A stretch of DNA of 32,000 nucleotides from Hyphomicrobiales bacterium (GTDB taxonomy: Bacteria; Pseudomonadota; Alphaproteobacteria; Rhizobiales; Kaistiaceae): assembly GCA_017305635.1 (NCBI GenBank), contig JAFKKF010000007.1, positions 349,330 to 381,329 on the forward strand, written 5' to 3'. Position numbers and translations under genes: made by a program. Positions 3,777 to 29,823 of the stretch are shown in pieces (position 1 is the first letter of the stretch; every line of letters starts with the position of its first letter). The notes beneath the pieces are model-generated. The model did no database searches and was not told the DNA's origin. It saw nothing but the letters and a program-made list of their open reading frames with translations.

Positions 3777-3885
3777 GATCGTCCTCCTTCCGGGTTTCGC
3801 TCGACGCTGTGCGCCGGCCTAGCGGTCCGATCCTCCAAGCCGAGTCGCCCCACGCTTTGCTCCGCTGGCTGTGACCGATAGACCA

Positions 3886-3915
3886 TTGACGAAACCCCCT
3901 AATGGGAATAATAAT
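3886..3915 (+). promoter_or_regulatory. Candidate sigma70-type promoter for the WYL regulator and defence operon
   Basis: TTGACG at 3886-3891, an 18-nt spacer, AATAAT at 3910-3915. It lies in the conspicuously AT-rich 200-bp divergent intergenic region, about 60 nt upstream of the ATG at 3977. An imperfect palindrome GGACCTCAGCAGGTTGTCC (3921-3939) follows and could be an operator. Sequence pattern only. Confidence 0.3.
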
Positions 3916-3976
3916 TACACGGACCTCAGCAGGTTGTCCATATAGTTTTTATCCTCATGTTGGCGAGGCAAGGCAA

Positions 3977-4861
3977 ATGGCGGAAGCCACGACGGCGTTG
4001 AAATGGGGGGTGGGGCGCCGACTCGAATTCATCGAGTTTCGGCTGTTCTGGGAGGGGTCGATCAACCGGGCCGACCTTGTCGAGGCGTTCGGCGTGTCAG
4101 TTCCGCAGGCTTCCAAGGATTTGACGCTCTATCAGGAGCGGGCGCCCGGCAACATGGAGTACGACACCCGCGCCAAGCGCTACGTCGCCGCCGAAAAATT
4201 CGTACTGCGCTTCCTTGAACCGGACCCCTACATCTATCTGTCGCAGCTCCGCTCGGTCGCCGAGGGGGCTCTGCCTGCGAGCGACTCGTGGATCGCGGCG
4301 CTCCCCAGCGCCGATGTGGCGCTAACTCCCAGGCGGGACATCGACATCAAGGTTCTGCGGAAGATTCTCGACGCGAGCCGGGAGGGCGTTTCCATCGACG
4401 TCTTCTACCAGTCGATGAACAAGTTGCGGCCCGAGCCCACCTGGCGACGGATCACCCCGCACGCCTTCGGCTACGATGGTTTCCGCTGGCACGCGCGGGC
4501 CTATTGCCACCTCGAACACAAGTTCAAGGATTTCCTGCTGCCGCGAGTCCTCGACGTTGGCGCGAAGGGGGAGCCTGGCGAGGCGGGCGACCGGGACTGG
4601 CTCTGGAATAACTATTTCGACGTCATCATCGGCCCGCATCCGGGGCTTACGGCGAGCCAGAAGATGGTCGTCGCCAAGGATTATGGGCTGGACCAGGGAA
4701 ACGGCGTGCTCTCGGTTCGCTACGCCATGCTTTTTTACGTTTTGAAGCGCCTGGGTTTGCTTGGTGACGCCGCGAAACAGAGCGCCCATACACAGCATAT
4801 CGTAACAATAAACCGCAAGGAAACTGAAGCCGCGCTTGAGAAGGCGGAGCTTCAGCTATGA
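3977..4861 (+). CDS. wHTH-WYL domain transcriptional regulator, BrxR/CapW-like
   Basis: The ORF track frame starts at 3902; I prefer the internal ATG at 3977 (MAEATTALKWG...). N-terminal winged HTH (INRADLVEAFGVSVPQASKDLTLYQE). Central WYL-type domain (VSIDVFYQSMNKLRPEPTWRRITPHAFGYDGFRWHARAYCHLEHKFKDFLLPRVLDV). A C-terminal extension as in BrxR-family regulators that sit upstream of defence operons. Confidence 0.85.
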   Translation: MAEATTALKWGVGRRLEFIEFRLFWEGSINRADLVEAFGVSVPQASKDLTLYQERAPGNMEYDTRAKRYVAAEKFVLRFLEPDPYIYLSQLRSVAEGALPASDSWIAALPSADVALTPRRDIDIKVLRKILDASREGVSIDVFYQSMNKLRPEPTWRRITPHAFGYDGFRWHARAYCHLEHKFKDFLLPRVLDVGAKGEPGEAGDRDWLWNNYFDVIIGPHPGLTASQKMVVAKDYGLDQGNGVLSVRYAMLFYVLKRLGLLGDAAKQSAHTQHIVTINRKETEAALEKAELQL

Positions 4862-4882
4862 AGAACTGGGGGGAGCCGAGCA

Positions 4883-7800
4883 ATGCCGGCAAGGCTTGAG
4901 GAGATAAAGAACGGCGCCTCAGTGCGAGGCGTCGCTTCGGCGCAGCCCGTGCATGTGCTTTCGGTCGATTGGATCGGCGATCAGGCGATCAACGTCGTTT
5001 TCCGCGACCGCAACGGCACGGTGGCCGAGGCTGTTCTTTATCGCGACGATGAGCACCGTCTCGAGGTCGAGCAGAACGGCCGACCGTGGTCGTTCGATGT
5101 CGACGGCGCGTTGCTGCGCCTGGTGACGGAAGCCAACCGCATTAAGCTGGCGCACTATTTCGACCCGTATCTGGCGATTCACACGAGCCTGGTCGATCCG
5201 CTGCCGCACCAGATCTCGGCGGTCTATGGCGAGATGCTGCCGCGCCAACCGCTTCGCTTCCTCCTCGCCGACGATCCCGGCGCGGGCAAGACGATCATGG
5301 CCGGGTTGCTGATGAAGGAACTGATCGCCCGCAGCGATCTGGAACGCTGTCTTGTCGTTGCGCCGGGCAGCCTGGTCGAGCAATGGCAGGACGAACTCGG
5401 CCAGAAGTTCAATCTCGAGTTCGACATCCTTTCCCGCGACATGATCGAGAACTCGCGGTCGGGCAATCCGTTCAGCGATAGGGATCGGCTGATCGTCCGT
5501 CTCGACGTGTTGGCGCGCAACGAGGAGCTTCAGGAGAAGCTCATGAGCGCGCGCGAATGGGACCTGATTATCTGCGACGAAGCCCACCGCATGTCCGCCA
5601 CCTATTTCGGCGGTGAGGTCAAATATACGCGGCGCTATCAGGTCGGCCAGAAGCTCGGTCAGGTTTGCCGCCACCTACTGCTGATGTCGGCGACGCCGCA
5701 CAACGGCAAGGAAGAGGATTTCCAGCTCTTCATGGCGCTCCTCGACGGCGATCGGTTCGAGGGCCGGTTCCGCGACGGTGTCCACTATGCCGACACGGAA
5801 GACATGATGCGGCGGCTGACCAAGGAAGAGCTGCTCAAGTTCGATGGCCGGCCGCTGTTCCCCGAGCGGCGCGCGCGCACGGTCAAGTATCAGCTCTCGG
5901 AAGGGGAGGCAGCGCTCTACACCGCCGTCACCGAATATGTGCGCAGCGAGATGAACCGCGTGCAGCGCTTCGCCGAGGGCGACGGGAAGAAGCGCAACAA
6001 CGTCGGGTTTGCCTTGCAGATACTTCAGCGGCGTCTCGCCTCGTCGCCGGCCGCCATCTATCAGTCCCTCAAGCGCCGCCGGGAACGGTTGGAAAACGAG
6101 CTGGGCGAAGCGCGCCTGGCCGCCAAGGGCCGCCGGGCCGGCGCAACCGAGCCCGCGATCAACGCTGACATGCTGCGGAACATCGAGGAGTATGGCCAGG
6201 AGGAGATCGACGAGCTTGAGGATCTGATCTCGACGGGCGCGACGACGGCCGAGACGGTCGAGCAACTCGCTCTGGAAGTCGAAACCCTGAAGGGGTTGGA
6301 GACGATGGCGCTCGGCGTGCTGCGCTCAGGCGTGGACACGAAATGGAGCCAGCTCAATCGTATTCTCGACGATGATCTGATGGTCGACGCGGCCGGCAAT
6401 CGTCGCAAGCTGATCATCTTCACCGAGCCCAAGGACACGCTGCACTACCTGCTCGACAAGGTGCGGGCGCGGCTCGGCAACCCCGAGGCCGTCGAGGTGA
6501 TCCACGGCGGCGTGTCGCGCGAAGAGCGGCGCAAGGTCGTCGAGCGCTTCATGCAGGACAAGGACATGCTGGTCCTGATCGCCAACGACGCGGCGGGCGA
6601 AGGCGTGAACCTCCAGCGCGGCCATCTCATGGTCAATTACGACCTGCCGTGGAATCCGAACAAGATCGAGCAGCGGTTCGGCCGTATCCACCGCATCGGC
6701 CAGACCGAGGTTTGCCACCTGTGGAATCTCGTCGCGGCCGATACTCGCGAGGGCGAGGTTTACGCGCGGCTGCTGGAGAAACTGGAAGCGGCGCGCGAGG
6801 CGCTGGGCGGCCGGGTCTATGACGTGCTCGGCGAATTGTTCGACGGCGTGGCGCTGAAGGATTTGCTGTTCGAGGCGATCCAGTATGGCGAGCAGGAGGA
6901 CGTGAAAGCGCGTCTTTTCCAGCAGGTCGATGGTGCGGTGGATCAGGCGCACCTGCTCGAACTGCTGCGCCGCCGCGCCCTGACCAACGACACCATGCCG
7001 GAAGCGAGGGTCGAGGAATTGCGGCTGGAGATGGAGCGGGCCGAGGCGCTGCGCCTACAGCCGCACCACATCCAGAGCTTCTTCGTCGAGGCGTTCCAGC
7101 ATCTGGGCGGGCGCATCAAGCGCCGGGAGGAAGGGCGTTGGGAGGTCACGCATGTCCCGGTGCGCATCCGCGAGCGGGATCGCCAGATCGGAACCGGCGC
7201 GCCGCTCCAGACGCAGTATGAGCGCATCTGCTTCGAGAAGGACAAGATCAACCAGCAGCCCGTCGCCGCCTTCGTTTGTCCCGGCCACCCGCTGCTCGAG
7301 GCCGTGATCAGCCTGATCCGCGAACAGTATGAGCAGATTATGCGGCAGGGCGCGATCCTGGTCGACGACACCGACGCGGGCAATGCGCTGTCGGCGATTT
7401 TCCTGCTGGAACATACGGTCCAGGACGGTCGCGTCACCAGCGCCGGCAAGCCGCATGTGATCTCGCAGCGCCTCCAGTTCGCTGCGATCGACAAGGCCGG
7501 AAACACCGTCAACGCGGGCATCGCGCCGCATTTGAATCTGCGGCCGGCAACGCCGGAGGAAATCGGCAGCGTGCGAGAGCTTCTGGACGAGAGTTGGCTG
7601 ACCACCGACTTGGAGAAGGTCGCGATCCGGTTTGCGACGGTCGAACTGGCGCAAGGCCACGTCACAGAGGTCAAGGCGCGGCGGCTGCCCGAGATCGAAA
7701 AGGTCGAGCAGGAAGTTCGCGCTCGCCTCAAGAAGGAGATCAATTACTGGGACTCGCGCGCCTTCGAGCTGAAGGAGGAGGAGCGCGCCGGCAAGAAAAC

Positions 7801-8386
7801 GCGGGTGAACTGGCAGAACGCGCAGCGCCGTGCCGAAGACTTGGCGGATCGGCAGAAGCGGCGCATGGACCAGCTTGAGCGGGAGCGTTTCATCTCGTCG
7901 CAGCCCCCGCGTGTGCGGGGCGGCATGGTCGTCATTCCGCGTGGACTGTTGCAAGAGCGCCAGGCGCCGAGCATTCCGAACCATTTTGCAGAAGACCCGG
8001 CCGCGCGCCGGGAGATCGAGCTCGCGGCGATGGCGGCTGTGATGGCGGCCGAACGCGCGCTGGGCAACGAGCCCGCCGACGTCTCCGCCCAGAAGATCGG
8101 CTACGACATCGCGTCCCACGATCCGCGGTCGGGGCATCTGCGCTTCATCGAGGTCAAGGGCCGCATCGATGGCGCGGACAGCGTGATGGTCACGCGCCAG
8201 GAGGTCATCACCTCCCTGCATGAACCGGAGAAGTTTATTCTCGCCATCGTGCCGGTCGCCGCGGGTTTCGCTCATGCGCCGCGCTATGTGCGCGGCCCGC
8301 TCGTGGAACGGGAACCGTCGTTTCTCGAGACCGCGATCCAGTTCCATTTGCCACGCCTACTCGAGCGTGCGGAGGAACCGCGATGA
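4883..8386 (+). CDS. SNF2-family (SF2) helicase/translocase with a C-terminal DUF3883 PD-(D/E)xK-like domain
   Basis: 1167 aa. Motif I LADDPGAGKT, motif II DEAH (ICDEAHRM), motif III MSATPHNG, motif VI QRFGRIHRIGQ. C-terminal about 130 aa: AERALGNEPADVSAQKIGYDIASHD...LRFIEVKGR, giving a D (8105-8107) ... E-V-K (8150-8158) nuclease-fold signature typical of DUF3883. G-rich SD GGGGGGAG at 4869-4876. Confidence 0.9.
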   Translation: MPARLEEIKNGASVRGVASAQPVHVLSVDWIGDQAINVVFRDRNGTVAEAVLYRDDEHRLEVEQNGRPWSFDVDGALLRLVTEANRIKLAHYFDPYLAIHTSLVDPLPHQISAVYGEMLPRQPLRFLLADDPGAGKTIMAGLLMKELIARSDLERCLVVAPGSLVEQWQDELGQKFNLEFDILSRDMIENSRSGNPFSDRDRLIVRLDVLARNEELQEKLMSAREWDLIICDEAHRMSATYFGGEVKYTRRYQVGQKLGQVCRHLLLMSATPHNGKEEDFQLFMALLDGDRFEGRFRDGVHYADTEDMMRRLTKEELLKFDGRPLFPERRARTVKYQLSEGEAALYTAVTEYVRSEMNRVQRFAEGDGKKRNNVGFALQILQRRLASSPAAIYQSLKRRRERLENELGEARLAAKGRRAGATEPAINADMLRNIEEYGQEEIDELEDLISTGATTAETVEQLALEVETLKGLETMALGVLRSGVDTKWSQLNRILDDDLMVDAAGNRRKLIIFTEPKDTLHYLLDKVRARLGNPEAVEVIHGGVSREERRKVVERFMQDKDMLVLIANDAAGEGVNLQRGHLMVNYDLPWNPNKIEQRFGRIHRIGQTEVCHLWNLVAADTREGEVYARLLEKLEAAREALGGRVYDVLGELFDGVALKDLLFEAIQYGEQEDVKARLFQQVDGAVDQAHLLELLRRRALTNDTMPEARVEELRLEMERAEALRLQPHHIQSFFVEAFQHLGGRIKRREEGRWEVTHVPVRIRERDRQIGTGAPLQTQYERICFEKDKINQQPVAAFVCPGHPLLEAVISLIREQYEQIMRQGAILVDDTDAGNALSAIFLLEHTVQDGRVTSAGKPHVISQRLQFAAIDKAGNTVNAGIAPHLNLRPATPEEIGSVRELLDESWLTTDLEKVAIRFATVELAQGHVTEVKARRLPEIEKVEQEVRARLKKEINYWDSRAFELKEEERAGKKTRVNWQNAQRRAEDLADRQKRRMDQLERERFISSQPPRVRGGMVVIPRGLLQERQAPSIPNHFAEDPAARREIELAAMAAVMAAERALGNEPADVSAQKIGYDIASHDPRSGHLRFIEVKGRIDGADSVMVTRQEVITSLHEPEKFILAIVPVAAGFAHAPRYVRGPLVEREPSFLETAIQFHLPRLLERAEEPR

Positions 8387-9357
8387 GGATCACCAAAGGT
8401 CTGATCATCGCCGACCCGTGGATCGGCTACATTCTCAGCGGGACCAAGGACTGGGAGATGCGCTCCTCGGGGGCGTCACATCGCGGCTGGTTTGCGCTGA
8501 TCCGTAAAGGCAGTGGGACGATCTATGGCATTGCCCGACTGGTCGACGTGGGGTCGCCGCTATCGCCAACGGAGATGGTCGTCACGTTCGCGCATCATCG
8601 TATTCCCGAGCACATGATTCGGTCGGGCGAAGTCGCCAAATGGAATACGCCTTGGAAGCTCGCCGATGTGCGTCGGTTCGAACGTCCGATCCCGTATCGG
8701 CACAAGAGTGGTGCCGTGACTTGGGTCGAACTGGACGACGCAGCCATCGATGGTGTCGCCAGTCAGCTCGAGGCTGGAGATATGACGATCGCCCCCGAAG
8801 CAGCAGCGCGGCCGGATGACGGCTCGCGGCGTGATCGCGTTGGCAGCGCCGATACGGTGACGGTTGAGGTCTCTCAGTGCGGCAGGAAGCTGCATATCGA
8901 CATCGAATGGGATGATCGGGAGCCGGACGCTGTCGCGGCGGTGAAACCGCGACCTGCGCCAGTATCGCCCCGTCCTCTGACGCTGCCGCCTATAACGGCT
9001 GCGCAGACAGCAGCGGGGCGTGTGATCGGCGAGGTGGAGATTGCCGACGGAAATATCACGAACAACCACATCTACCTGCGCTCATTTTTCGACCGCTTTC
9101 CGGCCGACGTCATTGGCGGTTCAAACAAGGCGACGAGAGCAAGGCGCGATCTCACGATCGACTGGGGCGGCGCGGAGCCGGTCCAGACCGACCTCGACGG
9201 CCAGAAGAAGTTTTTCCGTGCTCGCGGCTGGATCGGCGCCTTCTATCAGTTGCATCGCGCTCAGGCCGGGGACCGCGTCGTGGTCGAGGAGATCACGGCC
9301 TATCATTATCGCGTCAGTCTCAGAAAACAGGGACCGCGAGCAGGAGCGGCCCGATGA
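8383..9357 (+). CDS. ASCH (PUA-like) domain protein with an A/P/R/D-rich linker and an unassigned, possibly B3/EcoRII-N-like, C-terminal domain
   Basis: 324 aa. N-terminal about 115 aa contain the ASCH signature GxKxxExR (SGTKDWEMR) in an ASCH-like context (IIADPWIGYILSGTKDWEMRS...GTIYGIARLVDV). C-terminal about 100 aa: NNHIYLRSFFDRFPADVIG...DLTIDWGG...KKFFRARGWIGAFYQLHRAQAGDRVVVEEI. ATGA overlap with the helicase stop; SD GGAGGAA at 8371-8377. Confidence 0.8.
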   Translation: MRITKGLIIADPWIGYILSGTKDWEMRSSGASHRGWFALIRKGSGTIYGIARLVDVGSPLSPTEMVVTFAHHRIPEHMIRSGEVAKWNTPWKLADVRRFERPIPYRHKSGAVTWVELDDAAIDGVASQLEAGDMTIAPEAAARPDDGSRRDRVGSADTVTVEVSQCGRKLHIDIEWDDREPDAVAAVKPRPAPVSPRPLTLPPITAAQTAAGRVIGEVEIADGNITNNHIYLRSFFDRFPADVIGGSNKATRARRDLTIDWGGAEPVQTDLDGQKKFFRARGWIGAFYQLHRAQAGDRVVVEEITAYHYRVSLRKQGPRAGAAR

Positions 9358-10346
9358 TCGACGGATTGGACGACCAGCTTTGTGATTGGGCTGAGCTGAA
9401 AGATCAGGAGGATTGGTCGGGACTGCTCATCGGCAACGGATTTAGCCAGAATCTGTGGCAGCGTTTTGGGTATGGTTCGCTATTCGAGACCGCAGCGCAA
9501 GGCGATGGAGCGCAGCTCAACGCCGCAGATGTCTCACTGTTTGACCGCCTGGAAACACGAAACTTCGAAGTTGTTTTGAGCGCCTTGGCGACCAGCAAGA
9601 CCGTGTCCGCGGCGCTCGATCAGCCACTGGCCCCGTTTTCAGAGCGAGAGGTCAGTATTCGGGAGGCGCTGATCCGGGCCGTCCATTCGGTCCATGTGCC
9701 ATGGCAATCCGTACCTGCCGCCCACCTCGACGTTATCGCCGCCGAACTATCAGCTTATGCGTCGATCTACTGCACGAATTATGACCTCACGCTCTATTGG
9801 GCGCTCATGCGGAATCAGAACGGCTTCCGGGATTATTTTTGGTCGGAGAAGTTCGACGTCACAAACACCGAGATCTGGGGCAAAAGGACCAAGGTGCATT
9901 TCCTGCATGGCGGCCTGCACCTCTATCGGCGACCGAACGGCCAGACATTGAAGAGACCGGCCGCGGCGGGACAAAACCTGCTCGATCTGTTCGGAACCGC
10001 CTATCAGGATTCTATGCCGCTCTTCATTTCGGAGGGGACGGCTCAGGAGAAGCTCGCGTCGATCTATCGGTCCGACTACCTCTCCTTTGTATTCGCTTGC
10101 CTGGCGCAGGACACGGAACCCTTGGTTGTCTTTGGTCACAGCCTTGGCGACAGCGACAAGCACCTCATAGACGCTATCGGAAACCACAAAGGCCGTTCGG
10201 TTGCCGTATCGCTCCGCGCCTCCGGCAACATTCGGCAGAAGAAGGCCGCGCTGATTGAAGCGCTGCCCGAAGCCACGCTGCATTTCTACGACGCCGCCAC
10301 GCATCCGCTGGGCGCAGAAAACCTCCAAATTGAAGAGCCCGCGTAA
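9354..10346 (+). CDS. DUF4917-family protein (SIR2-like fold inferred)
   Basis: 330 aa. N-terminal WSGLLIGNGFSQNLW matches the DUF4917 opening motif (LLxGNGFS). Also FLHGGLHLY and VVFGHSLGDSDKHLIDAI, which parallel the GxG..S / LHG / fGyS..D layout of SIR2-like defence proteins. ATGA overlap with the upstream gene (9354-9357); SD AGGAG at 9342-9346. Confidence 0.8.
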   Translation: MIDGLDDQLCDWAELKDQEDWSGLLIGNGFSQNLWQRFGYGSLFETAAQGDGAQLNAADVSLFDRLETRNFEVVLSALATSKTVSAALDQPLAPFSEREVSIREALIRAVHSVHVPWQSVPAAHLDVIAAELSAYASIYCTNYDLTLYWALMRNQNGFRDYFWSEKFDVTNTEIWGKRTKVHFLHGGLHLYRRPNGQTLKRPAAAGQNLLDLFGTAYQDSMPLFISEGTAQEKLASIYRSDYLSFVFACLAQDTEPLVVFGHSLGDSDKHLIDAIGNHKGRSVAVSLRASGNIRQKKAALIEALPEATLHFYDAATHPLGAENLQIEEPA

Positions 10347-13072
10347 TGACCCAGAATTACAAAAAGAAACTCATAGAAATCGCAATTCCACTCGAGGCGA
10401 TTAATGCGGCGTCGGCGCGGGAAAAATCGATCCGACACGGGCATCCGTCGACATTGCATCTATGGTGGGCGCGCCGTCCGCTCGCGGCATGTCGGGCGGT
10501 GCTGTTCGCCCAGCTTGTCGATGATCCGTCGAGCCATCCCGAAAAATTCGTGACCGAGGAGGAGATCGAAACTGAACGCGATCGTCTCTTCCGGATCATC
10601 GAGGACTTGGTGAAGTGGGAGAATTCTACCAACGAGGAAGTTCTGGAACGCGCCCGCGCTGAAATTCGCAGGAATTTTCCGGAAGGCGTCCCTCCGGCCT
10701 ATGACCCCTTTTCCGGGGGGGCCTCTATTCCACTCGAGGCTCTCCGGCTCGGTTTGCGGTCGACCGGGTCTGATCTCAACCCTGTTGCCGTGATGATCGG
10801 CAAGGCAATGATCGAGCTGCCTTCCCAATTCAAGGATCGGAAGCCTGTCCATCCCGGCAAACTGGAGCGCCTGCACTATCGCGGCGCTGAAGGTCTTGCC
10901 GAGGACATTCTCTGGTATGCGCAGGCGCTAACCGACAAGGCGCGGGAGAAAATTGGACACCTCTATCCGCAGGTCGCTCTTCCTAAGAAGGATGGCGGCG
11001 GCGAAGCTACCATCCTCGCTTGGCTGTGGGCCAGGACCGTTGCTAGTCCGAACCCGGCGGTGCGCGGCGCCCATGTCCCTTTGATTTCCAACTATTGGCT
11101 TTGCAACAAGCCCAAGAAATCAGTTTGGGTGCAGCCCACCATCAGCGGTTCTGACATCTCCTTCGAAATTCGCACTGGTAAACCCGCTGATCCGGGTGCC
11201 GTCGCGGCAGGCACCAAGGCGGGCCGGGGTGCGAATTTCAGATGCCTCCTAACCGGCGACGCGATCACGGCCGACTATGTGAAGGCCGAGGGCATGGCCG
11301 GTAGGATGGGCTGGCGACTGCTTGCCATAGTTTTGGAAGGTAAAGGCGGACGCCGATACGTTGCTCCAACAAAAGAACATGAAACTTTGGCTTTCAGCGA
11401 AAAGCCTGATTGGAGGCCGGAGTATCCTCTATCGCAACATCCCCAGTATATGAGTGTGACCAATTATGGTCCGACCAATATCGCCGATCTTTTCATGGAT
11501 CGGCAGACCATCGCGTTGAATACATTCATGGGCATCATTCCAGATGTTGTCCGCGAAATCTCGGACGAAGCATACCGAAAGGCAATCGTCTCATATCTTG
11601 TGTTGGGCGTGAGCAGGTTGGCTAACAGGCAGTCGACAAGCGCCTTTTGGGATACCGCTGGAGAGAACGTGCAGCAGGTGTTTGCAATGCAGGCCTTGCC
11701 GATGCGCTGGGACACGGTTGAAGGAAACCCGTTCTCGTCGTCCTCGGGCAATTTCATCGGTCAGGTCGAATATCTGGCGAAAGCCGTGGCCGCTCTTCCC
11801 TGTTCGGATCAGGGTGGCATCGAACACCAAATGGATGCCCAGAACGTAGATTTCTCAGGCTTCGTTATCTCTACCGACCCGCCGTATTACGACAACGTCC
11901 CTTATGCGGATTTGTCCGATTTCTTCTATGTCTGGCTGCGGAAAGGGCTGGCAGGGGCCTACCCGGACCTGTTTTCGACCATGCTGGTTCCCAAGCAAGA
12001 GGAACTGGTTGCCGACTATAAACGCCACGGCGGTAAGGACCAGGCCGACAGCTTCTTTCTCGAAGGTATGACTACCGTCATGCGTCACATGGCGACGCAG
12101 GGCCGGCCCGATGTGCCTGCTGCGATTTATTATGCTTTCCGGCAAGGCGAGGTCGACGAAAGCGGTTTCTCGGTTAAGGGGTGGGCGACCTTCCTTCAGG
12201 CGATTGTCGACGCCGGCTATTCGATCGGGGCGACATGGCCGGTACGGACCGAGCTTGTTGGCAACCTCAAGAAAAACAAAAACGCGCTCGCTACGTCTGT
12301 CGTGATGGCGTGTCGGCCTCGTGCGGCGGATGCCGAGACGATCTCGCGCATCGAGTTTATCCGGGCGCTGCGCCGTGAACTGCCCGCAGCCCTCAAGGAG
12401 ATGCACCGCGCAAGCATCGCTCCGGTGGATATTCCCCAGGCTTCCATCGGCCCCGGCATAGCGATTTTCAGCCGCTACGCCTCAGTGATCGAACGCGATG
12501 ACAGCCCGATGTCGGTGAAGACCGCCTTGCAAATCATCAACGAGGAACTGGATCAGTATCTTTCCTCTCAGGAAGGTGATTTTGATCCGGAGACGCGCTT
12601 TGCCGTGACCTGGTTCACTCAGCATGGGTACGAAAAGGGCTTGTTCGGCGATGCCGATAACCTTGCTCGCGCCCGTGGCATTTCGGTGGACGATGTACGC
12701 CATGCTGGCATCGTGGAATCATCGGCAGGGCGAGTCCGCATCTACAAGCGGGAAGACCTAGAGGACGATTGGAATCCCGAAACGGACCGCCATCTCACCA
12801 TCTGGGAATGTTGCCAGTATCTCGTGCGTCAACATCAACTGGATGGGTTGTCGCATGAGACGGCATTGCTCCTGAAGAAGGTTGGGAGCGACAAGGCCGA
12901 GGCGGTGAAGGACTTGGCTTACGTCCTTTATGAAATCAGCGACAAACGGCGGCAGGATCGCCAAGAGGCCACTACCTACAACGCGCTCGTCACCGACTGG
13001 ACCGAACTGACGCGGCAGGCTGCGGCGATCCACGACACCGTCGGCGATCGCCAGATCAAGCTGGACATCTGA
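10346..13072 (+). CDS. DUF1156-family DNA amino-methyltransferase (N6-adenine or N4-cytosine, DPPY type)
   Basis: 908 aa. Hallmark DUF1156 N-terminus LIEIAIPLEAINAASAREKSIRHGHPSTLHLWWARRPLAACRAVLFA. AdoMet motif I-like DPFSGGASIPLEA (10703-10741). Catalytic motif IV DPPY at 11876-11887 (ISTDPPYYDNVPYADLSDFFYVWL). The start overlaps the upstream TAA by 1 nt (TAATG). Confidence 0.9.
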   Translation: MTQNYKKKLIEIAIPLEAINAASAREKSIRHGHPSTLHLWWARRPLAACRAVLFAQLVDDPSSHPEKFVTEEEIETERDRLFRIIEDLVKWENSTNEEVLERARAEIRRNFPEGVPPAYDPFSGGASIPLEALRLGLRSTGSDLNPVAVMIGKAMIELPSQFKDRKPVHPGKLERLHYRGAEGLAEDILWYAQALTDKAREKIGHLYPQVALPKKDGGGEATILAWLWARTVASPNPAVRGAHVPLISNYWLCNKPKKSVWVQPTISGSDISFEIRTGKPADPGAVAAGTKAGRGANFRCLLTGDAITADYVKAEGMAGRMGWRLLAIVLEGKGGRRYVAPTKEHETLAFSEKPDWRPEYPLSQHPQYMSVTNYGPTNIADLFMDRQTIALNTFMGIIPDVVREISDEAYRKAIVSYLVLGVSRLANRQSTSAFWDTAGENVQQVFAMQALPMRWDTVEGNPFSSSSGNFIGQVEYLAKAVAALPCSDQGGIEHQMDAQNVDFSGFVISTDPPYYDNVPYADLSDFFYVWLRKGLAGAYPDLFSTMLVPKQEELVADYKRHGGKDQADSFFLEGMTTVMRHMATQGRPDVPAAIYYAFRQGEVDESGFSVKGWATFLQAIVDAGYSIGATWPVRTELVGNLKKNKNALATSVVMACRPRAADAETISRIEFIRALRRELPAALKEMHRASIAPVDIPQASIGPGIAIFSRYASVIERDDSPMSVKTALQIINEELDQYLSSQEGDFDPETRFAVTWFTQHGYEKGLFGDADNLARARGISVDDVRHAGIVESSAGRVRIYKREDLEDDWNPETDRHLTIWECCQYLVRQHQLDGLSHETALLLKKVGSDKAEAVKDLAYVLYEISDKRRQDRQEATTYNALVTDWTELTRQAAAIHDTVGDRQIKLDI

Positions 13073-13085
13073 GGGGGGACGGAAC

Positions 13086-16000
13086 GTGGCAAAAAGCACG
13101 CGCCAATATGTGTTTGAAGGAATGGAGTTGCTCCCGGCGGCGCTCATCCCGTTCGTAGAGAAAAGGCTGGAAAGTTCGCTTAAGGGGCACTGGCAGGTCC
13201 AGGTGCTGGAGAAGTTGCCGAACCTGCGCCCCAACAGCAGCGGTGAGGTCGGTTGGGACCAGGCCGCGCTGTTCAACGCCATGGATCGCTTTTGGAGCGA
13301 GGCGTTCAAGGCCGTGCTTGGCCGCGCCGAGCGCTCGCTGGTCAACGAGCTCGGGGATGTCCGCAACAAGCTCTCGCACAACGAGACCTTCACCTACGAC
13401 GACGCCGAACGTGCGCTCGATTCCATGCGGCGCTTGATGGAGGCGATCAGCGCCGGCGAGACGGCGGAGCAGCTCGGTAAGATGCGCGACACCATCCTGC
13501 GCACGAAGTTCACGGAGCTTCAGCGGAACGAGGAGAGGCGGAAAACCCAGCGCCTTGAGATTTCGGTCGAGACTGTGGCCGGGCTGTTGCCGTGGCGCGA
13601 GGTGGTCGAACCCCACCAGGATGTCGCCACCGGCGAGTTCCAGCAGGCCGAGTTCGCGGCCGACCTCGCCAAGGTGCATTCGGGCAGCGCGCCACCGGAA
13701 TACCGCGACCCGCGTCAGTTCTTCAGCCGCACCTATCTGACGGAAGGTTTGAGCGCGCTGTTGATTGGGGCCGCGAAGCGGCTGTCCGGTAGCGGCGGCG
13801 ATCCGGTCGTCGAACTGCAAACCAACTTTGGCGGCGGCAAGACGCACTCGATGTTGGCGCTCTATCACATGGCTGGGCCTGCCCCCGTGCAGGACCTCTC
13901 CGGCTTGGACCAGTTGCTCGAAAAGCAGGGGCTCAGCGTGCCGCAGGGCATCAACCGCGCCGTGCTCGTCGGCACGTCGCGCGGGCCGCAGGACGTGCTC
14001 CATGCCGAGGGCGATCGGAAGATTCGCACAACCTGGGGCGAACTCGCCTGGCAGCTTGGCGGCGCCGACGCTTTCGCCATGGTCGCGGAGAATGACGCCA
14101 GCGGCATCGCGCCGGGCTCGAACCTGCTGGAAGCGCTCTTCAAGAAATATGCGCCGTGCCTGATCCTGATCGACGAATGGGTCGCGTACCTGCGTCAGAT
14201 CTACAAGGTCGAGGGACTGCCGTCCGGGTCGTTCGATGCCAACCTGTCCTTCGTCCAGTCGCTGACCGAGGCGGTCAAGGCCAGCCCCGGCACGCTGCTC
14301 GTCGCGTCCTTGCCGGCCTCGCAGATCGAGGTGGGCGGCGAAGGCGGCCAGGAAGCGCTTGCTCGACTCAAGCAGACCTTCAGCCGCGTGGAATCCTCAT
14401 GGCGTCCGGCGAGTCAGGAGGAGAGCTATGAGATCGTCCGGCGGCGGCTGTTCAAGGACATCCCCGGCGACAAGTTCCACCATCGCGACAACACGCTGAA
14501 GCAGTTCGCGAAGCTCTACCGTGAGAACGCCAACGATTTTCCGCAAGGCTGCGCGGACGAAGACTATCGGCGCAAGTTGGAGAAGGCTTATCCGATCCAT
14601 CCCGAGTTGTTCGACCAGCTCTACACGAGCTGGGGGTCGCTCGAAAAATTCCAGCGCACGCGCGGCGTGCTGCGCCTGATGGCGCAGGCTATTCACGAGC
14701 TGTGGATGAACGCGGATCCGTCGGTGATGATCATGCCGGGCAGCGTGGCGGTGAGTTCACCGCGTGTGGAGCCCGAATTGCTGCACTATCTTGAGGTGAG
14801 TTGGCAGTCGATCATCGCCGGCGATGTCGATGGTGCGACGTCCACGCCCTACAAGATCGACCAGTCCGCGCCCAACCTAAACCGATACTCTGCGACGCGT
14901 CGCGTCGCGCGCGCGATCTTCATGGGGACGGCGCCGACGCATCAGCAGCAAAACACGGGCCTCGACGACAAACAGATCAACCTCGGCGTCGTGCAGCCCG
15001 GCGAGCGGCCCGCGATCTTTGGTGATGCGCTCCGGCGGCTAACCAACCAGGCCAAGTTCATGCACGCTGATCTCGGCCGCTACTGGTATTCCATGTCGGC
15101 CAGCCTCAATCGCATCGCGGCGGACAAGGCCGCGCAGATCGAGGCGGCATTGGTTGACGTTAGGATTGATGCGGAACTCGGCAAATATGTGAATGGCCTT
15201 GTGGACCGCGGGCATTTCGACGCCGTGCAGGTTGCGCCTGCTTCATCGGCCGAAGTGCCCGATGAAGCCGGAGGCGTGCGGGCCGTGGTGTTAGGGGTTG
15301 CACATCCACACAGCGGGCGCGACACGTCGGAGGCCCTCGCCGAGGCTAAGGACATGCTGACGCAGCGCGGTTCCGCACCGCGCGTTTATCGCAACATGCT
15401 GGTTTTCATTGCCGCAGACTCGCGCCAGCTCGATAACCTGAAGGACGCTATGCGCGCGTCCCTGGCCTGGGGCGAGATCGTTCGTGACAAGGAGCGTTTG
15501 GAGCTTCGGCCGAGCGATCAGAAACTCGCGGAGGCCAAGCTGGCCGAGGCGACAGAAACGATGAAGACGCGCCTCAAAGAGGCGTGGTGCTACCTGCATT
15601 ATCCGGCGCAGGAGAGCGCTCAGACCGATGTGGAGTGGGTCTCGGGCAAGATCCCGGCGCAGGATGGGCTACTGGCGCGCGCCAGCAAGAAGCTCGTGGC
15701 CGAGGAAGGTCTGTTGACCGAGCTGGGGCCGTCGCGTCTCGATCGCGATCTCCAGAAATACATCTGGAACGACAAGCCACATCTGTCGCTGAAGGATCTG
15801 CGGGAATACCTCAATCGCTACATCTATCTGCCCCGCCTCAAGGGGCAGGACGTCCTGATCAAGGCCGTGCAGGCGGCCGTCAGCGGCATGTTGCCCGGTC
15901 CCTTCGCCTATGCCGAGCGATGGGACGAGAAGACCGATACCTATCTGGGGCTCGCTATCGAGCGGGGCGGCAACGCGCCTGTGGTGATCGACAGCGATAG

Positions 16001-16388
16001 CGTCATCATCAAACCGGACGTGGCCGAAGCGCATCGCCCGGCGCCTTCGCAACCCGGGGCGGGTGATACGCCTGGAGGCGCCGACAGTGGCGGACCCACG
16101 CCCGCGCCTGGCGGGCCGGGCGTCGAGGAGACGCCTGCCACGCCGCCGACGGAAAAGAAGCCGACACGTTTCAGCGGCGCGGTGATGATTTCACCGGAGC
16201 GCCCCGCCAGGGACATTCACCAGATTGTCGAGGCGATCGTGGAGCAGCTGACGACGCTGCCCGGCAGCGAGGTGCGGTTGAGACTGGAGATCGAGGCGGA
16301 TGTGCCGGGTGGGCTTGATCGCGCCAAGGTGCGGACCTTGGTCGAGAATGCAAACACCCTGGGGTTTGTCGAGAAGTCAGTAGAGTGA
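13086..16388 (+). CDS. Swt1-like HEPN domain + DUF499 P-loop ATPase
   Basis: 1100 aa from a GTG start 13 nt after the MTase stop, preceded by GGGGGGA. HEPN Rx4H motif RNKLSH at 13362-13379 (ELGDVRNKLSHNETFTYDDAERALDSM). Walker A NFGGGKTHS (GGGKT 13830-13844). Walker B CLILIDEW (DE 14172-14177). A P/G-rich linker and a small C-terminal domain, as in DUF499 proteins. Confidence 0.9.
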   Translation: MAKSTRQYVFEGMELLPAALIPFVEKRLESSLKGHWQVQVLEKLPNLRPNSSGEVGWDQAALFNAMDRFWSEAFKAVLGRAERSLVNELGDVRNKLSHNETFTYDDAERALDSMRRLMEAISAGETAEQLGKMRDTILRTKFTELQRNEERRKTQRLEISVETVAGLLPWREVVEPHQDVATGEFQQAEFAADLAKVHSGSAPPEYRDPRQFFSRTYLTEGLSALLIGAAKRLSGSGGDPVVELQTNFGGGKTHSMLALYHMAGPAPVQDLSGLDQLLEKQGLSVPQGINRAVLVGTSRGPQDVLHAEGDRKIRTTWGELAWQLGGADAFAMVAENDASGIAPGSNLLEALFKKYAPCLILIDEWVAYLRQIYKVEGLPSGSFDANLSFVQSLTEAVKASPGTLLVASLPASQIEVGGEGGQEALARLKQTFSRVESSWRPASQEESYEIVRRRLFKDIPGDKFHHRDNTLKQFAKLYRENANDFPQGCADEDYRRKLEKAYPIHPELFDQLYTSWGSLEKFQRTRGVLRLMAQAIHELWMNADPSVMIMPGSVAVSSPRVEPELLHYLEVSWQSIIAGDVDGATSTPYKIDQSAPNLNRYSATRRVARAIFMGTAPTHQQQNTGLDDKQINLGVVQPGERPAIFGDALRRLTNQAKFMHADLGRYWYSMSASLNRIAADKAAQIEAALVDVRIDAELGKYVNGLVDRGHFDAVQVAPASSAEVPDEAGGVRAVVLGVAHPHSGRDTSEALAEAKDMLTQRGSAPRVYRNMLVFIAADSRQLDNLKDAMRASLAWGEIVRDKERLELRPSDQKLAEAKLAEATETMKTRLKEAWCYLHYPAQESAQTDVEWVSGKIPAQDGLLARASKKLVAEEGLLTELGPSRLDRDLQKYIWNDKPHLSLKDLREYLNRYIYLPRLKGQDVLIKAVQAAVSGMLPGPFAYAERWDEKTDTYLGLAIERGGNAPVVIDSDSVIIKPDVAEAHRPAPSQPGAGDTPGGADSGGPTPAPGGPGVEETPATPPTEKKPTRFSGAVMISPERPARDIHQIVEAIVEQLTTLPGSEVRLRLEIEADVPGGLDRAKVRTLVENANTLGFVEKSVE

Positions 16389-16502
16389 GTGCGGGGCAAC
16401 GTGGGTGCAATCCGCCATTTCTGTAAAACCATGCTTATTCAAACACATGAAACAATGAGGGGGTAAAATGTAGCGCGGCAAGATGTGGAGAAGAGTAGCT
16501 CC

Positions 16503-17453
16503 ATGGTGATCGAGTTGCGCAACATTCACTACTTCGTCGCGGCTGCGGAGCATGGTAGCTTTCGCAGGGCGGCGGCATTCCTGAGTATTCAGGAATCTGC
16601 CGTCAGCCGCCGCATCCGCGATCTCGAGGACCGGCTTGGCGCTTCCTTGTTCCACCGCCACTCCGGCGGCGTTTCCCTCACGGTGGCGGGCGAACGGTTT
16701 CTAAGTCGTGTGCGGATCGCCCTCCAGCAGATCGAAAATGGCGTCAACGATGTCGCCGCGATCGGCCGATCCGAGGACGGCATCGTCAAGATCGGCATCT
16801 TCTCGTCCCTGGCGTCGGGTTTCCTGTTCGACCTGATGAAGGCGTTCGACGAGAAGCATCCGCGCGTGACGGTCGAACTGATCGAAGGCAATCCATCGGT
16901 CCATGTCGCGGCGGTCCGGCAGCTCCAGCTCGACGTGGCGTTCATCACCGGCACGGGCGAGTGGCCCGGCTGCGAAACCGAGCAGCTATGGACGGAAGGC
17001 GTGTTCGCCGTCCTGCCGACGGAACACGGTCTTACGAAGAAGCAGAGCTTGCGCTGGCGCGATCTTGATGAGGAGACCTTCATCGTCAGCGATGCCGCGC
17101 CGGGACCGGAAATCCGCGATTATCTGGTCCAGCGCCTGGCGGATCTCGGCCGCCATCCGAACATCCACCCTCAATATGTCGGGCGCGATGTCCTTCTGTC
17201 GATGGTCGCCGTGGGGCGCGGACTGACAGTGGTCAGCGAGGCGGCGACCGGCGCGCGCTTTCCCGGCGTCGTCTATCGGCAGATCGCAGATGAGGTCCTG
17301 CCGTTCAGTGCGATCTGGTCGCGCCGAAACGACAATCCGGCATTTCGCAGGTTTCTCAGCCTTGCTCGAATACTGTCGCGATCCGAAAGCGCGAATATCA
17401 AACGGACGGGTTCGCCCGCTTCGCCTTCGCAAAGCCGCGATCCGTCCCGATGA
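16503..17453 (+). CDS. LysR-family transcriptional regulator
   Basis: MVIELRNIHYFVAAAEHGSFRRAAAFLSIQESAVSRRIRDLEDRLGASLFHRHSGGVSLTVAGERFL is a canonical LysR HTH, followed by a substrate-binding-type domain. The track starts at GTG 16485; I prefer ATG 16503. Confidence 0.85.
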   Translation: MVIELRNIHYFVAAAEHGSFRRAAAFLSIQESAVSRRIRDLEDRLGASLFHRHSGGVSLTVAGERFLSRVRIALQQIENGVNDVAAIGRSEDGIVKIGIFSSLASGFLFDLMKAFDEKHPRVTVELIEGNPSVHVAAVRQLQLDVAFITGTGEWPGCETEQLWTEGVFAVLPTEHGLTKKQSLRWRDLDEETFIVSDAAPGPEIRDYLVQRLADLGRHPNIHPQYVGRDVLLSMVAVGRGLTVVSEAATGARFPGVVYRQIADEVLPFSAIWSRRNDNPAFRRFLSLARILSRSESANIKRTGSPASPSQSRDPSR

Positions 17454-17625
17454 ACCGCTCCAGCATCGGAATGATCAGCCGCGCCGGATCGGTCGCCGGT
17501 TGCCCGGCTTCGCGGGCGAGGATTTCCGCATAGGCAGTAAGATCACGATAAAGGCTCGCGGGCAGCTCCAGCGTGACCTTGACCGGCTTGTCGTCGACGA
17601 TCGGACCGAGCTTCAGTTTCGCCAT
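17398..17625 (-). CDS. DUF2274-family small protein (T4SS-associated, follows trbI)
   Basis: MAKLKLGPIVDDKPVKVTLELPASLYRDLTAYAEILAREAG... matches the conserved DUF2274 opening found after trbI in Trb-type ICEs. I prefer ATG 17625, which has GGAGG 5 nt upstream and lies 1 nt after the trbI stop, over the track start at 17637. Confidence 0.8.
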   Translation of the reverse strand: MAKLKLGPIVDDKPVKVTLELPASLYRDLTAYAEILAREAGQPATDPARLIIPMLERFIGTDRGFAKAKRANPSV

Positions 17626-17626
17626 T

Positions 17627-18880
17627 TCAGCCTCCATAGGGTTCGAGCACCAGGTCGCGCGTGACGATGACGCGGACGGGAAAGCCCGGCCGGGTCGTCA
17701 GCGTCGGCGCGATGTTGAGCTGGCGCTGGACGATCTGTTGGCCGGTCTGGCTGATGCTGTCGGAAGCGCCGTTGCGGAGCGCACGCACGATGTCGCTCTC
17801 CTGCCCGGACGAGCCCGTTTCGGCGCCGACGCTGAGCAGGGTAGAGAGCGCGGCCGATTTGAACAGTTCACCCCAATGATAGTCGACGCCATCTTCCAGT
17901 CCGGCAAAGCCCTCGGCGTCCGCGCCTGGCTGGCGCTCGAGCACGATCGAGCGGCCGTTCGGGAAGATCAGGCGATTCCAGACCAGCAGGACGCGGCGCT
18001 GGCCGAAGCCGACGCCGCTGTCATATTGGCCGACGACGCGGGAGCCCTGCGGGATCAGGAGGATGCGGCCGGTGGGGCTGTCGTAGATGTTCTCCGTCAC
18101 CTGCGCGGTGATCTGGCCGGGCAGATCGGAGCGGATGCCGGTGATGAGCGCGGCGGAAATCACCGCGCCCGCTTGCAGGACATTGGCAGACGCGGGCGCC
18201 GTCAACCGATCGGGTGAAACCGTGCGCTTGTCGGGCGTCTGGTCGAGGAAGGCGAGCTGACGATCCTGGGCCGAGGGCGTGGCCGGTTGCGGTGCGAGGC
18301 CAAGGCTGGCGAGATCGGTCGCGGGCGCTGCGGTGGGCGCGCCGGCTGAAATGGTGGCAGGCCGCGTCTCGGTGGACGAGAACAGGCGCGCGGTGCGCGC
18401 TGCTTCCAGCTCCTGCGCCCGGCGCTGTTCTTCCGGGCTGGGACCGGGCGGTGTCGCGGCCATGCCCGGCGTCGGAACCGTCCGGCCGCCATTCTGGGCA
18501 TTGAGAATGGGGCGGCCGAGATCGCCGGGCAGCGGCGGGCCGAGCTGCGGCACGCCCGCATAGTCCTTGGGCAGGCCATTCAGCCCATCGGGCGTGGCGC
18601 GGTTGTCGGTGGAATAGAGTTCCTGTCCCCGATGTCCGTCGTTGCGGGACTGGAGCGCATGGACCAGCGCCCCGCCGACACCGATGCTGGCGACGAGGCC
18701 GAGCCCGGCCAGCACCTTGCGCGAGAGGCGGGTCACGCGCGGCGGCTCGGGACGCAGCCGCATAGGCGCTGCGGGCTCGCCCGAGAGCGGCCGTTCGTCG
18801 ATGTCATCGTCGGGCCGCGAGCGCGGAGCCTCAGCGGGCGTCCGGCCGTCTTCCCGTTCTGGATCGCGGGGGTCGCTCAC
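17627..18880 (-). CDS. trbI: P-type conjugative transfer protein TrbI (VirB10 family)
   Basis: 417 aa. RPEPPRVTRLSRKVLAGLGLV TM anchor, a Pro-rich region, and a conserved C-terminal barrel region (AGAVISAALITGIRSDLPGQITAQVTENIYDSPTGRILLIPQGSRVVGQYD). GTG start overlaps the trbG stop (GTGA). Confidence 0.9.
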   Translation of the reverse strand: MSDPRDPEREDGRTPAEAPRSRPDDDIDERPLSGEPAAPMRLRPEPPRVTRLSRKVLAGLGLVASIGVGGALVHALQSRNDGHRGQELYSTDNRATPDGLNGLPKDYAGVPQLGPPLPGDLGRPILNAQNGGRTVPTPGMAATPPGPSPEEQRRAQELEAARTARLFSSTETRPATISAGAPTAAPATDLASLGLAPQPATPSAQDRQLAFLDQTPDKRTVSPDRLTAPASANVLQAGAVISAALITGIRSDLPGQITAQVTENIYDSPTGRILLIPQGSRVVGQYDSGVGFGQRRVLLVWNRLIFPNGRSIVLERQPGADAEGFAGLEDGVDYHWGELFKSAALSTLLSVGAETGSSGQESDIVRALRNGASDSISQTGQQIVQRQLNIAPTLTTRPGFPVRVIVTRDLVLEPYGG

Positions 18881-20624: not shown

Positions 20625-20626
20625 GG

Positions 20627-21976: not shown

Positions 21977-21978
21977 GG

Positions 21979-25577: not shown

Positions 25578-25850
25578 TCAGACCGTGAGGTGCGCGGGGA
25601 TGCGCAGGTGGCGGCGGCCGACATCGACGAACAGCGGATCGCGCTTGGCCGCCCACACCGCGGCGACGTGGCCGACGGCCCAGATGACGATGCCGACCAG
25701 CCAGAGGCGCAGGCCGAGGCCGAGCGCGCCCGCCAGCGTGCCGTTCATGATGGCGAGCGCGCGCGGCGCGCCGCCGAGCAGGATCGGCTCGGACAACGCC
25801 CGGTGGACCGGCACGGTGAAGCCCGGCAGATCGTCGGCCCCACCCAGCAT
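25578..25850 (-). CDS. trbD: Conjugal transfer protein TrbD (VirB3 family)
   Basis: 90 aa. VHRALSEPILLGGAPRALAIMNGTLAGALGLGLRLWLVG...AAKRDPLF is typical TrbD. Positioned between trbC and trbE. Confidence 0.85.
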   Translation of the reverse strand: MLGGADDLPGFTVPVHRALSEPILLGGAPRALAIMNGTLAGALGLGLRLWLVGIVIWAVGHVAAVWAAKRDPLFVDVGRRHLRIPAHLTV

Positions 25851-29819: not shown

Positions 29820-29823
29820 AAGA

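Follow-up and report, generated by a model that had tools for sequence, protein, structure and literature searches.

Layout of the six-gene operon

The 32,000-nucleotide (nt) stretch of DNA analysed here, called the window throughout, carries six open reading frames (ORFs) on its plus strand between positions 3977 and 16388 (g1 to g6), among which are the three core genes of an Hma system. We consider it likely that the locus as a whole is an Hma operon under the control of a BrxR/CapW-type regulator, which has a mobile SIR2-like gene as cargo as well as a helicase-linked gene for an ASCH-B3 protein, and which is carried by a conjugative element from an alphaproteobacterium resembling Sphingopyxis.

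The first gene, g1 (3977-4861), codes for a transcription regulator of the BrxR/CapW family with 294 amino acids (aa), composed of a winged helix-turn-helix, a WYL and a C-terminal domain. It is followed by g2 (4883-8386), which encodes HmaA, an SNF2-type helicase of 1167 aa with a C-terminal NOV_C (DUF3883) nuclease domain of the PD-(D/E)xK type. The third gene, g3 (8383-9357), specifies a two-domain protein of 324 aa with an ASCH and a putative B3-like domain, and g4 (9354-10346) a stand-alone SIR2-like protein of 330 aa which belongs to DUF4917 and corresponds to the PADLOC candidate PDC-S21. The last two genes are g5 (10346-13072), coding for HmaB, a DUF1156 DNA methyltransferase of 908 aa with a DPPY motif and predicted N6-adenine specificity, and g6 (13086-16388, GTG start), coding for HmaC, in which a Swt1-like HEPN domain is joined to a DUF499 ATPase of the ORC/Cdc6-type AAA+ class (1100 aa).

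The six genes are tightly packed. There are 21 nt between g1 and g2, ATGA overlaps join g2 to g3 (8383-8386) and g3 to g4 (9354-9357), g4 and g5 meet in a TAATG (10344-10348), and 13 nt lie between g5 and g6. These junctions are exactly those given in a first-pass annotation of the same DNA, which had also described purine-rich Shine-Dalgarno sequences for most of the genes; a purine-rich stretch is in fact found upstream of all six starts. With a G+C content of 55-65%, the block stands apart from its flanks (68-72%), and within it g4 and g5 (57%) lie below g2 and g6 (64%).

Upstream of g1, a promoter-like site on the plus strand (TTGACG-18 nt-AATAAT, 3886-3915) agrees with the consensus at 10 of 12 positions, a consensus match only, and is the sole plus-strand match of this kind within 3600-17600. 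Terminator-like matches are not enriched in the same interval, with 11 found compared to 11.6 in shuffled sequences; a weak terminator-like hairpin just 3' of g6 (16401-16415, plus strand) is likewise a consensus match only. The lone promoter-like site together with the lack of a terminator excess is consistent with a single transcription unit, though signals of this kind cannot by themselves prove it. The view that these defence genes form one operon led by a WYL regulator has thus been upheld by the close packing, the lone promoter-like site and the homology of g1 to CapW and BrxR.

A longer form of g1 could begin at position 3902. This start is unlikely, as transcription initiated from the site at 3886-3915 would begin past the ATG at 3902, which favours the start at 3977. 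The alignment to CapW agrees with the latter, beginning at residue 5 of the 294-aa form. In the annotated genome of Sphingopyxis sp. 113P3, six orthologues are present with gene lengths identical to those of g1 to g6.

The Hma core and its regulator

The PADLOC model for HmaA matches g2 over its full length (1583.6 bits, residues 4-1166 of 1167), and Pfam recognises the domains SNF2-rel_dom, Helicase_C and NOV_C (formerly DUF3883). The protein carries the motifs GAGKT (5279-5293), DEAH (5576-5587) and EVKG (8150-8161), and HmaA is the predicted restriction effector of the system. The product of g5 is matched by HmaB models with 1069.9 and 1044.6 bits and by Pfam DUF1156 with 111.8 bits; with its FSGG (10709-10720) and DPPY (11876-11887) motifs it is predicted to be the self-marking DNA methyltransferase, acting on the N6 position of adenine. 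For g6, the HmaC model reaches 953.1 bits and Pfam finds HEPN_Swt1 (94 bits, HEPN at aa 12-122) and DUF499 (102 bits). Here the motifs are RNKLSH (Rx4H, 13362-13379), a Walker A motif GGGKT (13830-13844) and a Walker B motif LIDEW (14166-14180). The catalytic motifs are intact in all three proteins. The order of the genes also follows the PADLOC rule for Hma, by which up to three embedded genes may lie between neighbours (bioRxiv 10.1101/2024.01.29.577857): each core gene occurs once, all are on the plus strand, and two genes separate hmaA from hmaB while none separates hmaB from hmaC.

As the PADLOC Hma models, the Pfam domains and the intact motifs agree, the trio of g2, g5 and g6 is identified by homology as Hma, which is the same as the Type-1 DUF499-centred BREX-related (BR) system. 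Hma, with its components HmaA, HmaB and HmaC, was first defined by Payne et al. 2021 (PMC8565338) and re-described as the Type-1 BR system by Rakesh & Krishnan 2026 (PMC12839542), who found the HEPN-fused ATPase in 1370 taxa. The first-pass annotation had recognised the combination of DUF1156, DUF499 and SNF2-DUF3883 as a recurrent methylation-type defence module, to which the PADLOC matches now give a name; all of its domain assignments were borne out by the Pfam profile search, with the ASCH domain falling below threshold in that search and being confirmed by its fold.

A different affiliation had been suggested in that annotation, namely with the methylation-associated MADS system, and the locus could in principle be a MADS variant without the kinase. 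Beyond the suggested overlap in gene content, both are methylation-based systems with ATPases. The Hma models match full length at 953-1584 bits, however, while none of the mad models is among the listed PADLOC matches that the six proteins gave at E<=0.01 (of the 55 for g2, the best 25), even though mad models do exist in the library, as seen from weak mad2 and mad3 matches to other proteins. The literature also keeps MADS, BREX, MANTIS and Hma/BR apart (bioRxiv 10.64898/2026.09.23.753747; PMC12839542). An identity with MADS is therefore extremely improbable.

To place the window among its relatives, species-representative genomes were scanned with an alignment of g3, which gave 59 loci (numbered L001 onwards) that were searched with the six window proteins and with Zorya proteins. 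About 25 alphaproteobacterial loci share the order WYL-HmaA-ASCH-[slot]-HmaB-HmaC. The window resembles known Hma systems in that all three core proteins are matched at full length and high score, HmaC is fused to HEPN, the genes lie on one strand and insertions occur between hmaA and hmaB. It differs in that this alphaproteobacterial clade adds a fixed ASCH-B3 gene which overlaps the stop codon of hmaA, as well as a BrxR/CapW regulator. In those parts of the Hma/BR literature that were accessible, neither the fixed ASCH-B3 gene nor the leading regulator was found described.

The regulator itself is recognised by Pfam WYL with 28 bits and, in a phmmer search against solved structures, by CapW (7tb6, E 1.3e-61, residues 5-284) and BrxR (7t8k, E 1e-31). 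Its 113P3 orthologue has precomputed WHD_BrxR, WYL and BrxR_CTD domains. It shares with the known BrxR/CapW regulators homology over the full length and a place as the first gene of a defence operon on the same strand, but differs from them in being attached to Hma, and it is kept upstream of hmaA in 18 of the related genome loci. An operator scan of positions 3770-3990 gave a single inverted repeat of 8 nt (3792-3799 and 3890-3897) with a spacer of 90 nt.

Exchange of the HmaB core

Identity matrices of the proteins were compared over 19 complete loci. HmaA and HmaC diverge together (rho 0.91), whereas the HmaB distance matrix is uncorrelated with either of them (rho 0.02-0.04). The centre of HmaB is hypervariable (aa ~240-640, nt ~11063-12265): pairwise identities average 41-51% over aa 241-520 and 69-93% in the N-terminus. 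In comparison with the 113P3 copy, which is otherwise ~97% identical, conservation is likewise lowest here (about 90%). This suggests that the HmaB core is a specificity module exchanged by recombination.

The protein encoded by g3 behaves differently. Its ASCH domain follows HmaA and HmaC (rho 0.72-0.75), its B3 domain does so more weakly (rho 0.34-0.43), and neither domain follows HmaB (rho 0.17-0.27, with the B3 domain at 0.17). The idea that the B3 domain reads the site methylated by HmaB was dropped for this reason, the two identity matrices being essentially uncorrelated.

A SIR2-like protein in the hmaA-hmaB slot

The space between hmaA and hmaB is a known insertion hotspot of Hma. Embedded genes were found in 62.7% of 1,485 Hma systems (bioRxiv 10.1101/2024.01.29.577857; embedding is also reported in PMC11232893), and this "guilt by embedding" is the source of HEC-01 to HEC-09 and of the PADLOC PDC candidates (Payne et al. 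2024, bioRxiv 10.1101/2024.01.29.577857). The contents of the slot vary among the related genome loci. It holds a TmtA-like gene of 1410 aa in L003-L006 and L024, a GmrSD/HEC-05-like gene together with DUF4917 in L017, and DUF4917 with a 251-aa ORF in L026; in L011, HEC-07 lies between hmaA and the ASCH gene. In about 10 loci the slot is short and no cargo gene was assigned, with two of these (L012 and L015) having a small conserved ORF. The window corresponds to the published embedded candidates in that g4 matches PDC-S21 and sister loci hold HEC-07 or HEC-05-like genes, which makes it a textbook case of embedding. It departs from them in g3, for which no PADLOC model exists.

The small slot ORFs deserve a mention of their own. 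Those of L012 (10960-11430) and L015 (10888-11385) code for 156-165 aa beginning with 'DFAILAPVPLEHLQSG', and they gave no Pfam or PADLOC match; nor did the 251-aa ORF of L026 (7429-8184). All three could possibly be further embedded candidates.

The protein encoded by g4 matches Pfam DUF4917 with 151 bits and PADLOC PDC-S21 with 339 bits, besides weak SIR2 matches. Searching the Protein Data Bank with a DUF4917 sequence profile returned only a marginal SIR2 match (E 0.02). The structural model, which has a predicted local distance difference test score (pLDDT) of 90.8, is more informative, as its top Foldseek matches are all defence sirtuins: the SIR2 protein of SIR2-HerA (8sub, E 1.7e-11), followed by ThsA, KomC and DSR2 (down to 4.9e-4). 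The motifs GNGFS, TNYD and HGGLH are present, and across 30 homologues of g4 the residues G27, N28, G29 and S31, N142, Y143 and D144, and H185, G186 and H189 are invariant. By its modelled fold, g4 is thus predicted to be a SIR2-type effector that consumes NAD+. With the defence sirtuins of SIR2-HerA/Nezha, ThsA, DSR2 and KomC it shares the fold and the Rossmann, Asn/Asp and His motifs; unlike these, it is a lone domain of 330 aa without a fused sensor or a conserved partner gene. In the literature searched, no paper names PDC-S21 or reports an assay of phage defence for a DUF4917 gene, and neither PDC-S21, DUF4917 nor Pfam accessions were found in the portion of the supplementary tables of the embedding preprint that was available (bioRxiv 10.1101/2024.01.29.577857).

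The presence of g4 and g3 in the operon raises the question of whether the six genes together make up a single obligate composite system, of which the ASCH reader and the DUF4917 enzyme are integral parts. All six are translationally coupled, the same order is found in 113P3 and, as far as its 8-kb contig reaches, in Sphingomonas sp. Y57, and in 11 or more Hma loci with diverse sequences DUF4917 lies immediately before hmaB. Its distribution tells otherwise. Beyond the window and the 113P3 orthologue, DUF4917 occurs in only 3 of the ~25 related genome loci (L001, L017 and L026); in the other ~22, the WYL-HmaA-ASCH-HmaB-HmaC order is kept and the slot contains unrelated defence genes or nothing. 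A scan of metagenomes with a DUF4917 alignment yielded 80 loci. In 8 of these the gene stands right before hmaB, in several cases with no ASCH gene present (as in the Hma loci L079, L084 and L089); about 70 have no Hma gene within the retrieved sequence, many of these contigs being short. DUF4917 as an obligate part of Hma was rejected on this distribution. Because most homologues are found outside Hma and the slot is occupied by it in so few loci, g4 is better seen as swappable cargo than as a component of the system. That independent systems are embedded in Hma has experimental support as well, since 7 of 9 tested Hma-embedded cassettes defend on their own (bioRxiv 10.1101/2024.01.29.577857). 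One obligate six-gene system is therefore improbable.

These results also bear on two further claims of the first-pass annotation. Linkage in other genomes as the mark of a single system was found for the ASCH gene, within one Hma clade, and not for DUF4917. The novelty of the two genes wedged between helicase and methylase is much weaker than supposed, because embedding in Hma has already been published and g4 matches PDC-S21; what stands of it is the fixed place of the ASCH-B3 gene, of which no description was found.

Structure of the ASCH-B3 protein

The protein encoded by g3 consists of an N-terminal ASCH domain (aa 1 to ~135), a disordered linker of variable sequence (aa ~137-209) and a C-terminal B3-like pseudobarrel (aa ~212-318). 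Its AlphaFold model has a pLDDT of 76, with both domains mostly above 80 and the C-terminal domain above 90. The ASCH domain remains below the Pfam cut-off (17.8 compared to 21.2 bits) and is confirmed by the fold of the model, for which Foldseek returns 2dp9 (E 5e-9), the TRIP4 ASCH domain in complex with double-stranded DNA, and ZmASCH. The GxKxxExR motif reads GTKDWEMR (8440-8463) and is near-invariant across 31 homologues, with K22, E25 and R27 invariant; both domains are strongly conserved.

The C-terminal domain, for which a sequence-profile search found no match, had been left unassigned in the first-pass annotation. Foldseek now relates it to the plant B3 domains of FUS3, NGA1 and RAV1, to the N-domain of LlaJI.R1 and to BfiI-C, with probabilities of at least 0.93 (1.00 for most) and target TM-scores of 0.35-0.65, at E-values of only ~1e-2. 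It is accordingly described here as a putative B3-like DNA-binding pseudobarrel. Neither Pfam, PADLOC nor Foldseek recognised a catalytic domain in g3, and no PADLOC model matches the protein.

Distribution of the ASCH-B3 family

The family to which g3 belongs is large, with 262 clusters at 50% identity for E<=1e-30. Among 49 full-length genome homologues, about 24 lie directly 3' of hmaA, and in 21 loci the start of the gene overlaps the hmaA stop by 4 nt. The gene layout thus indicates that the ASCH gene is stably linked to Hma within one alphaproteobacterial clade and translationally coupled to the helicase gene. The nearest published parallel to this placement is an archaeal gene order described by Bell et al. 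2020, in which COG1743, DUF499, a SWI2/SNF2-nuclease and an EVE gene follow one another (PMC7641849). There, too, a stand-alone reader gene of the PUA/ASCH superfamily comes right after the helicase-nuclease of the same trio; the reader of the window differs in being bacterial and in having its ASCH domain fused to a B3-like domain. In further contrast to the archaeal operons, members of the g3 family accompany Zorya type I as well, a system that lacks a methyltransferase.

Full-length homologues without Hma come mostly from Rhodobacterales. There, the g3 homologue lies 23-29 nt 3' of zorD in 15 or more loci with a complete Zorya type I system. One of these, L028, has PADLOC scores of 799 bits for ZorA1, 381 for ZorB1, 518 for ZorC1 and 1253 for ZorD1. 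The ASCH-B3 gene follows zorD in L025, L028-L033, L035, L036, L038, L039, L041, L043, L044, L046 and L059, at ~10001-10870 in most of them; the spacing ranges from 23 to 47 nt across this Zorya set and is 24 nt in most cases. The literature search brought up no report of an ASCH protein associated with Zorya, and as far as it reaches, the Hma clade with its fixed ASCH-B3 accessory, which it has in common with Zorya type I, is a variant that has not been described before. As a side observation, the Azaca gene ZacC is located just upstream of zorA in several loci with Zorya and ASCH-B3.

Other contexts are fewer. In L052 (6939-13644), the ASCH-B3 gene is flanked by genes for a 1020-aa helicase of the ResIII type and for a type III methyltransferase (1449 bits with PADLOC MTase_III), and in L027 (6716-10379) a type III methyltransferase of the same family is directly downstream of it. 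It precedes Zorya-like genes in L048 and L055, in L048 after a type I restriction-modification (RM) system, and is found near a type IV restriction enzyme in L045. In L034 (6954-9941), a gene for an SMC_N/AAA_23 ATPase of 995 aa with weak PADLOC LmuB and mad3 matches lies between zorD and ASCH-B3, which implies that the Zorya-ASCH junction is able to take up cargo as well. In a neighbour-joining (NJ) tree without support values, most Zorya-linked copies form one clade and the other contexts are nested among the Hma-linked copies.

The ASCH domain also occurs outside this two-domain architecture. Small proteins of ~115 aa from Vibrio phages and plasmids are ~50% identical to it, examples being found in Vibrio phage MW009675.1 (18361-18696) and on the Piscirickettsia plasmid NZ_CP013758.1 (75537-75887), and for the N-terminus of annotated Druantia DruA proteins the identity is ~29%. 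Carriage by phages could point to a counter-defence role or to one related to DNA modification. Separately, the locus L057 (8714-14035), from a metagenome-assembled genome of Caulobacteraceae, has an ORF of 555 aa just before hmaA whose C-terminal end gives an ASCH match, and thus a different architecture and position for an ASCH domain beside Hma.

Given two folds that bind nucleic acids or ligands and the lack of an enzyme domain, g3 might be a second transcription regulator, in which B3 binds DNA and ASCH senses a ligand or modified nucleotide, controlling the downstream operon or the cargo of the slot. Fusions of helix-turn-helix and ASCH domains have been proposed as regulators (PMC7641849), and g3 precedes the variable slot in Hma loci. 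This role is improbable all the same, as the Zorya copies follow zorD, the last gene of that operon, and neighbour clustering showed no recurring family on the plus strand downstream of them. Moreover, the window has no promoter-like site downstream of g3, and its operon already has a BrxR/CapW regulator.

Genomic context

Over 19.4 kb, the window shares 96.9% identity with the chromosome of Sphingopyxis sp. 113P3 (CP009452.1), where all six genes recur. The immediate upstream neighbour of the defence operon is a divergently oriented gene on the minus strand (1119-3776) for an 885-aa protein of the AddB-like PD-(D/E)xK type (PDDEXK_1). Its 113P3 orthologue is followed by a UvrD-type helicase of 1132 aa, so that the two together would make an AddAB-like pair next to the operon.

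Downstream of g6, a LysR gene (16485-17453) is followed on the minus strand by genes for TrbI (17627-18880), TrbG/CagX (18877-19944), a protein with a VirB8 domain (19941-22031), a protein with a TrbC/VirB2 pilin domain (25850-27238), the coupling protein TraG/VirD4 (27828-30200) and a DUF3363 protein (29998-31839). These type IV secretion and conjugation genes imply that the defence operon is cargo of a conjugative element. The element is probably an integrative and conjugative element, as the near-identical stretch of 113P3 is chromosomal. No tRNA gene was found in the window, and no integrase was seen among the window ORFs scanned. A plasmid origin was considered and rejected, as the best match is a chromosome and plasmid records each cover at most 47% of the locus.

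A model for the operon

By analogy with characterised relatives, the Hma operon would act as a restriction-modification-like system against phages and plasmids. The core of this mechanism draws on homology, on work with HmaA of Halomonas and on the sister Type-2 system MANTIS. HmaA of Halomonas defends against phage T4 by its helicase and nickase activities (PMC11232893), and this HmaA-dependent defence against T4 is the only one published for Hma (PMC11232893). MANTIS (Gao_RL, Type-2 BR; Shaw et al. 2026) proceeds by ATPase-loaded hemimethylation followed by cleavage of unmodified sites (bioRxiv 10.64898/2026.09.23.753747) and is the only system of this group with a worked-out mechanism. Like the window, it combines a helicase-nuclease with a DUF1156-type methyltransferase and a homologous AAA+ ATPase of the DUF499 group, but its helicase carries a PLD (HKD) nuclease in place of NOV_C and it includes the small DUF3780 co-regulator MtsB. 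The difference is reflected in the PADLOC scores, as type-2 models reach only 75-138 bits on the window proteins, and PLD_Helicase 99.8 bits on g2 compared to 1583.6 for HmaA. DUF3780 has no Pfam match among the six window proteins.

In the proposed model, the AAA+ ATPase HmaC would load HmaB onto short DNA sites, and HmaB would mark the DNA of the host. Unmarked sites on incoming DNA would then license HmaA to translocate and to nick or cut, with the HEPN domain of HmaC possibly serving as a back-up RNase. The WYL repressor would hold the operon at a low level until triggered. As an independently mobile single-gene predicted NADase, g4 may provide a second, abortive-infection layer that shares only the expression of the operon. 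The protein encoded by g3, finally, might be a non-catalytic nucleic-acid reader or adaptor, which targets or licenses effectors of the superfamily 2 (SF2) helicase-nuclease type, for example on DNA with modified bases. This adaptor role is the weakest step of the scheme and is put forward tentatively. With the same reserve, the whole ASCH-B3 family could be pictured as a portable reader that plugs into HmaA, ZorD and Res-like helicases and sets or widens the range of DNA attacked, such as base-modified phage DNA that evades methylation-based discrimination.

The main rival to the adaptor role is that g3 is an autonomous embedded gene with a function in defence, anti-anti-defence or regulation, which hitch-hikes in these loci without a functional tie to the helicase. 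At least four kinds of locus host the family, several switches of context are suggested by the NJ tree, and single-domain relatives are encoded by plasmids and Vibrio phages or form the N-terminus of DruA. The embedding preprint may also know the gene, since ASCH is among the domain abbreviations that name frequent Hma-embedded cassettes in the legend of its Fig. S1 (bioRxiv 10.1101/2024.01.29.577857). On the other hand, g3 has no recognisable effector domain. Its position is fixed 3' of an SF2 helicase-nuclease gene, with the 4-nt overlap in 21 loci or a spacer of 23-29 nt in 15, and the divergence of its ASCH domain parallels that of the HmaA/HmaC backbone, which is true neither of the swapped HmaB core nor of the slot cargo. 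Autonomy of g3 is a possibility to be taken seriously, yet not the probable case.

Several points weigh against the model as a whole. The locus is known here from computation alone, that is from homology, fold and comparative genomics. Overexpression of HmaB in Halomonas left the sensitivity to T4 unaltered (PMC11232893), and the literature on Type-1 systems contains no demonstration of methylation by HmaB or of a role for HmaC. The sole characterised DUF4917 protein, SliP of C. jejuni, is reported to be a secreted deacetylase with sirtuin activity and not a defence NADase (PMC10421069). For g3, the adaptor role is pure inference, and all of the evidence is also compatible with an autonomous embedded gene. 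Its B3 fold match is weak by E-value, though consistent across many B3 structures, and the B3 domain tracks both HmaB and HmaA poorly (rho 0.17 and 0.34). The tie to the helicase gene is not absolute, as HEC-07 or the 995-aa ATPase gene may separate the two (L010/L011 and L034), and about six homologues are found in other or unknown contexts, besides the single-domain relatives in phages.

Implications for Hma and related systems

The operon is a clean natural example of how Hma serves other defence genes as a landing pad, and not a new composite system. Of the genes that have landed, g4 (DUF4917/PDC-S21) is a ready candidate for a minimal SIR2 defence protein that does without a sensor. The reshuffling of the HmaB centre independently of HmaA and HmaC predicts that the specificity of the system resides in a swappable module.

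The place of ASCH-B3 after the helicase-nuclease in Hma, Zorya type I and type III-like RM systems has wider consequences, provided that the reading given here is true. The family would then be a shared accessory module which crosses the boundaries between systems, instead of a component of one of them. If g3 and its relatives modulate the effectors next to which they are encoded, they would offer a handle on the targeting of HmaA and ZorD and would constitute a rare accessory common to otherwise unrelated defence systems.

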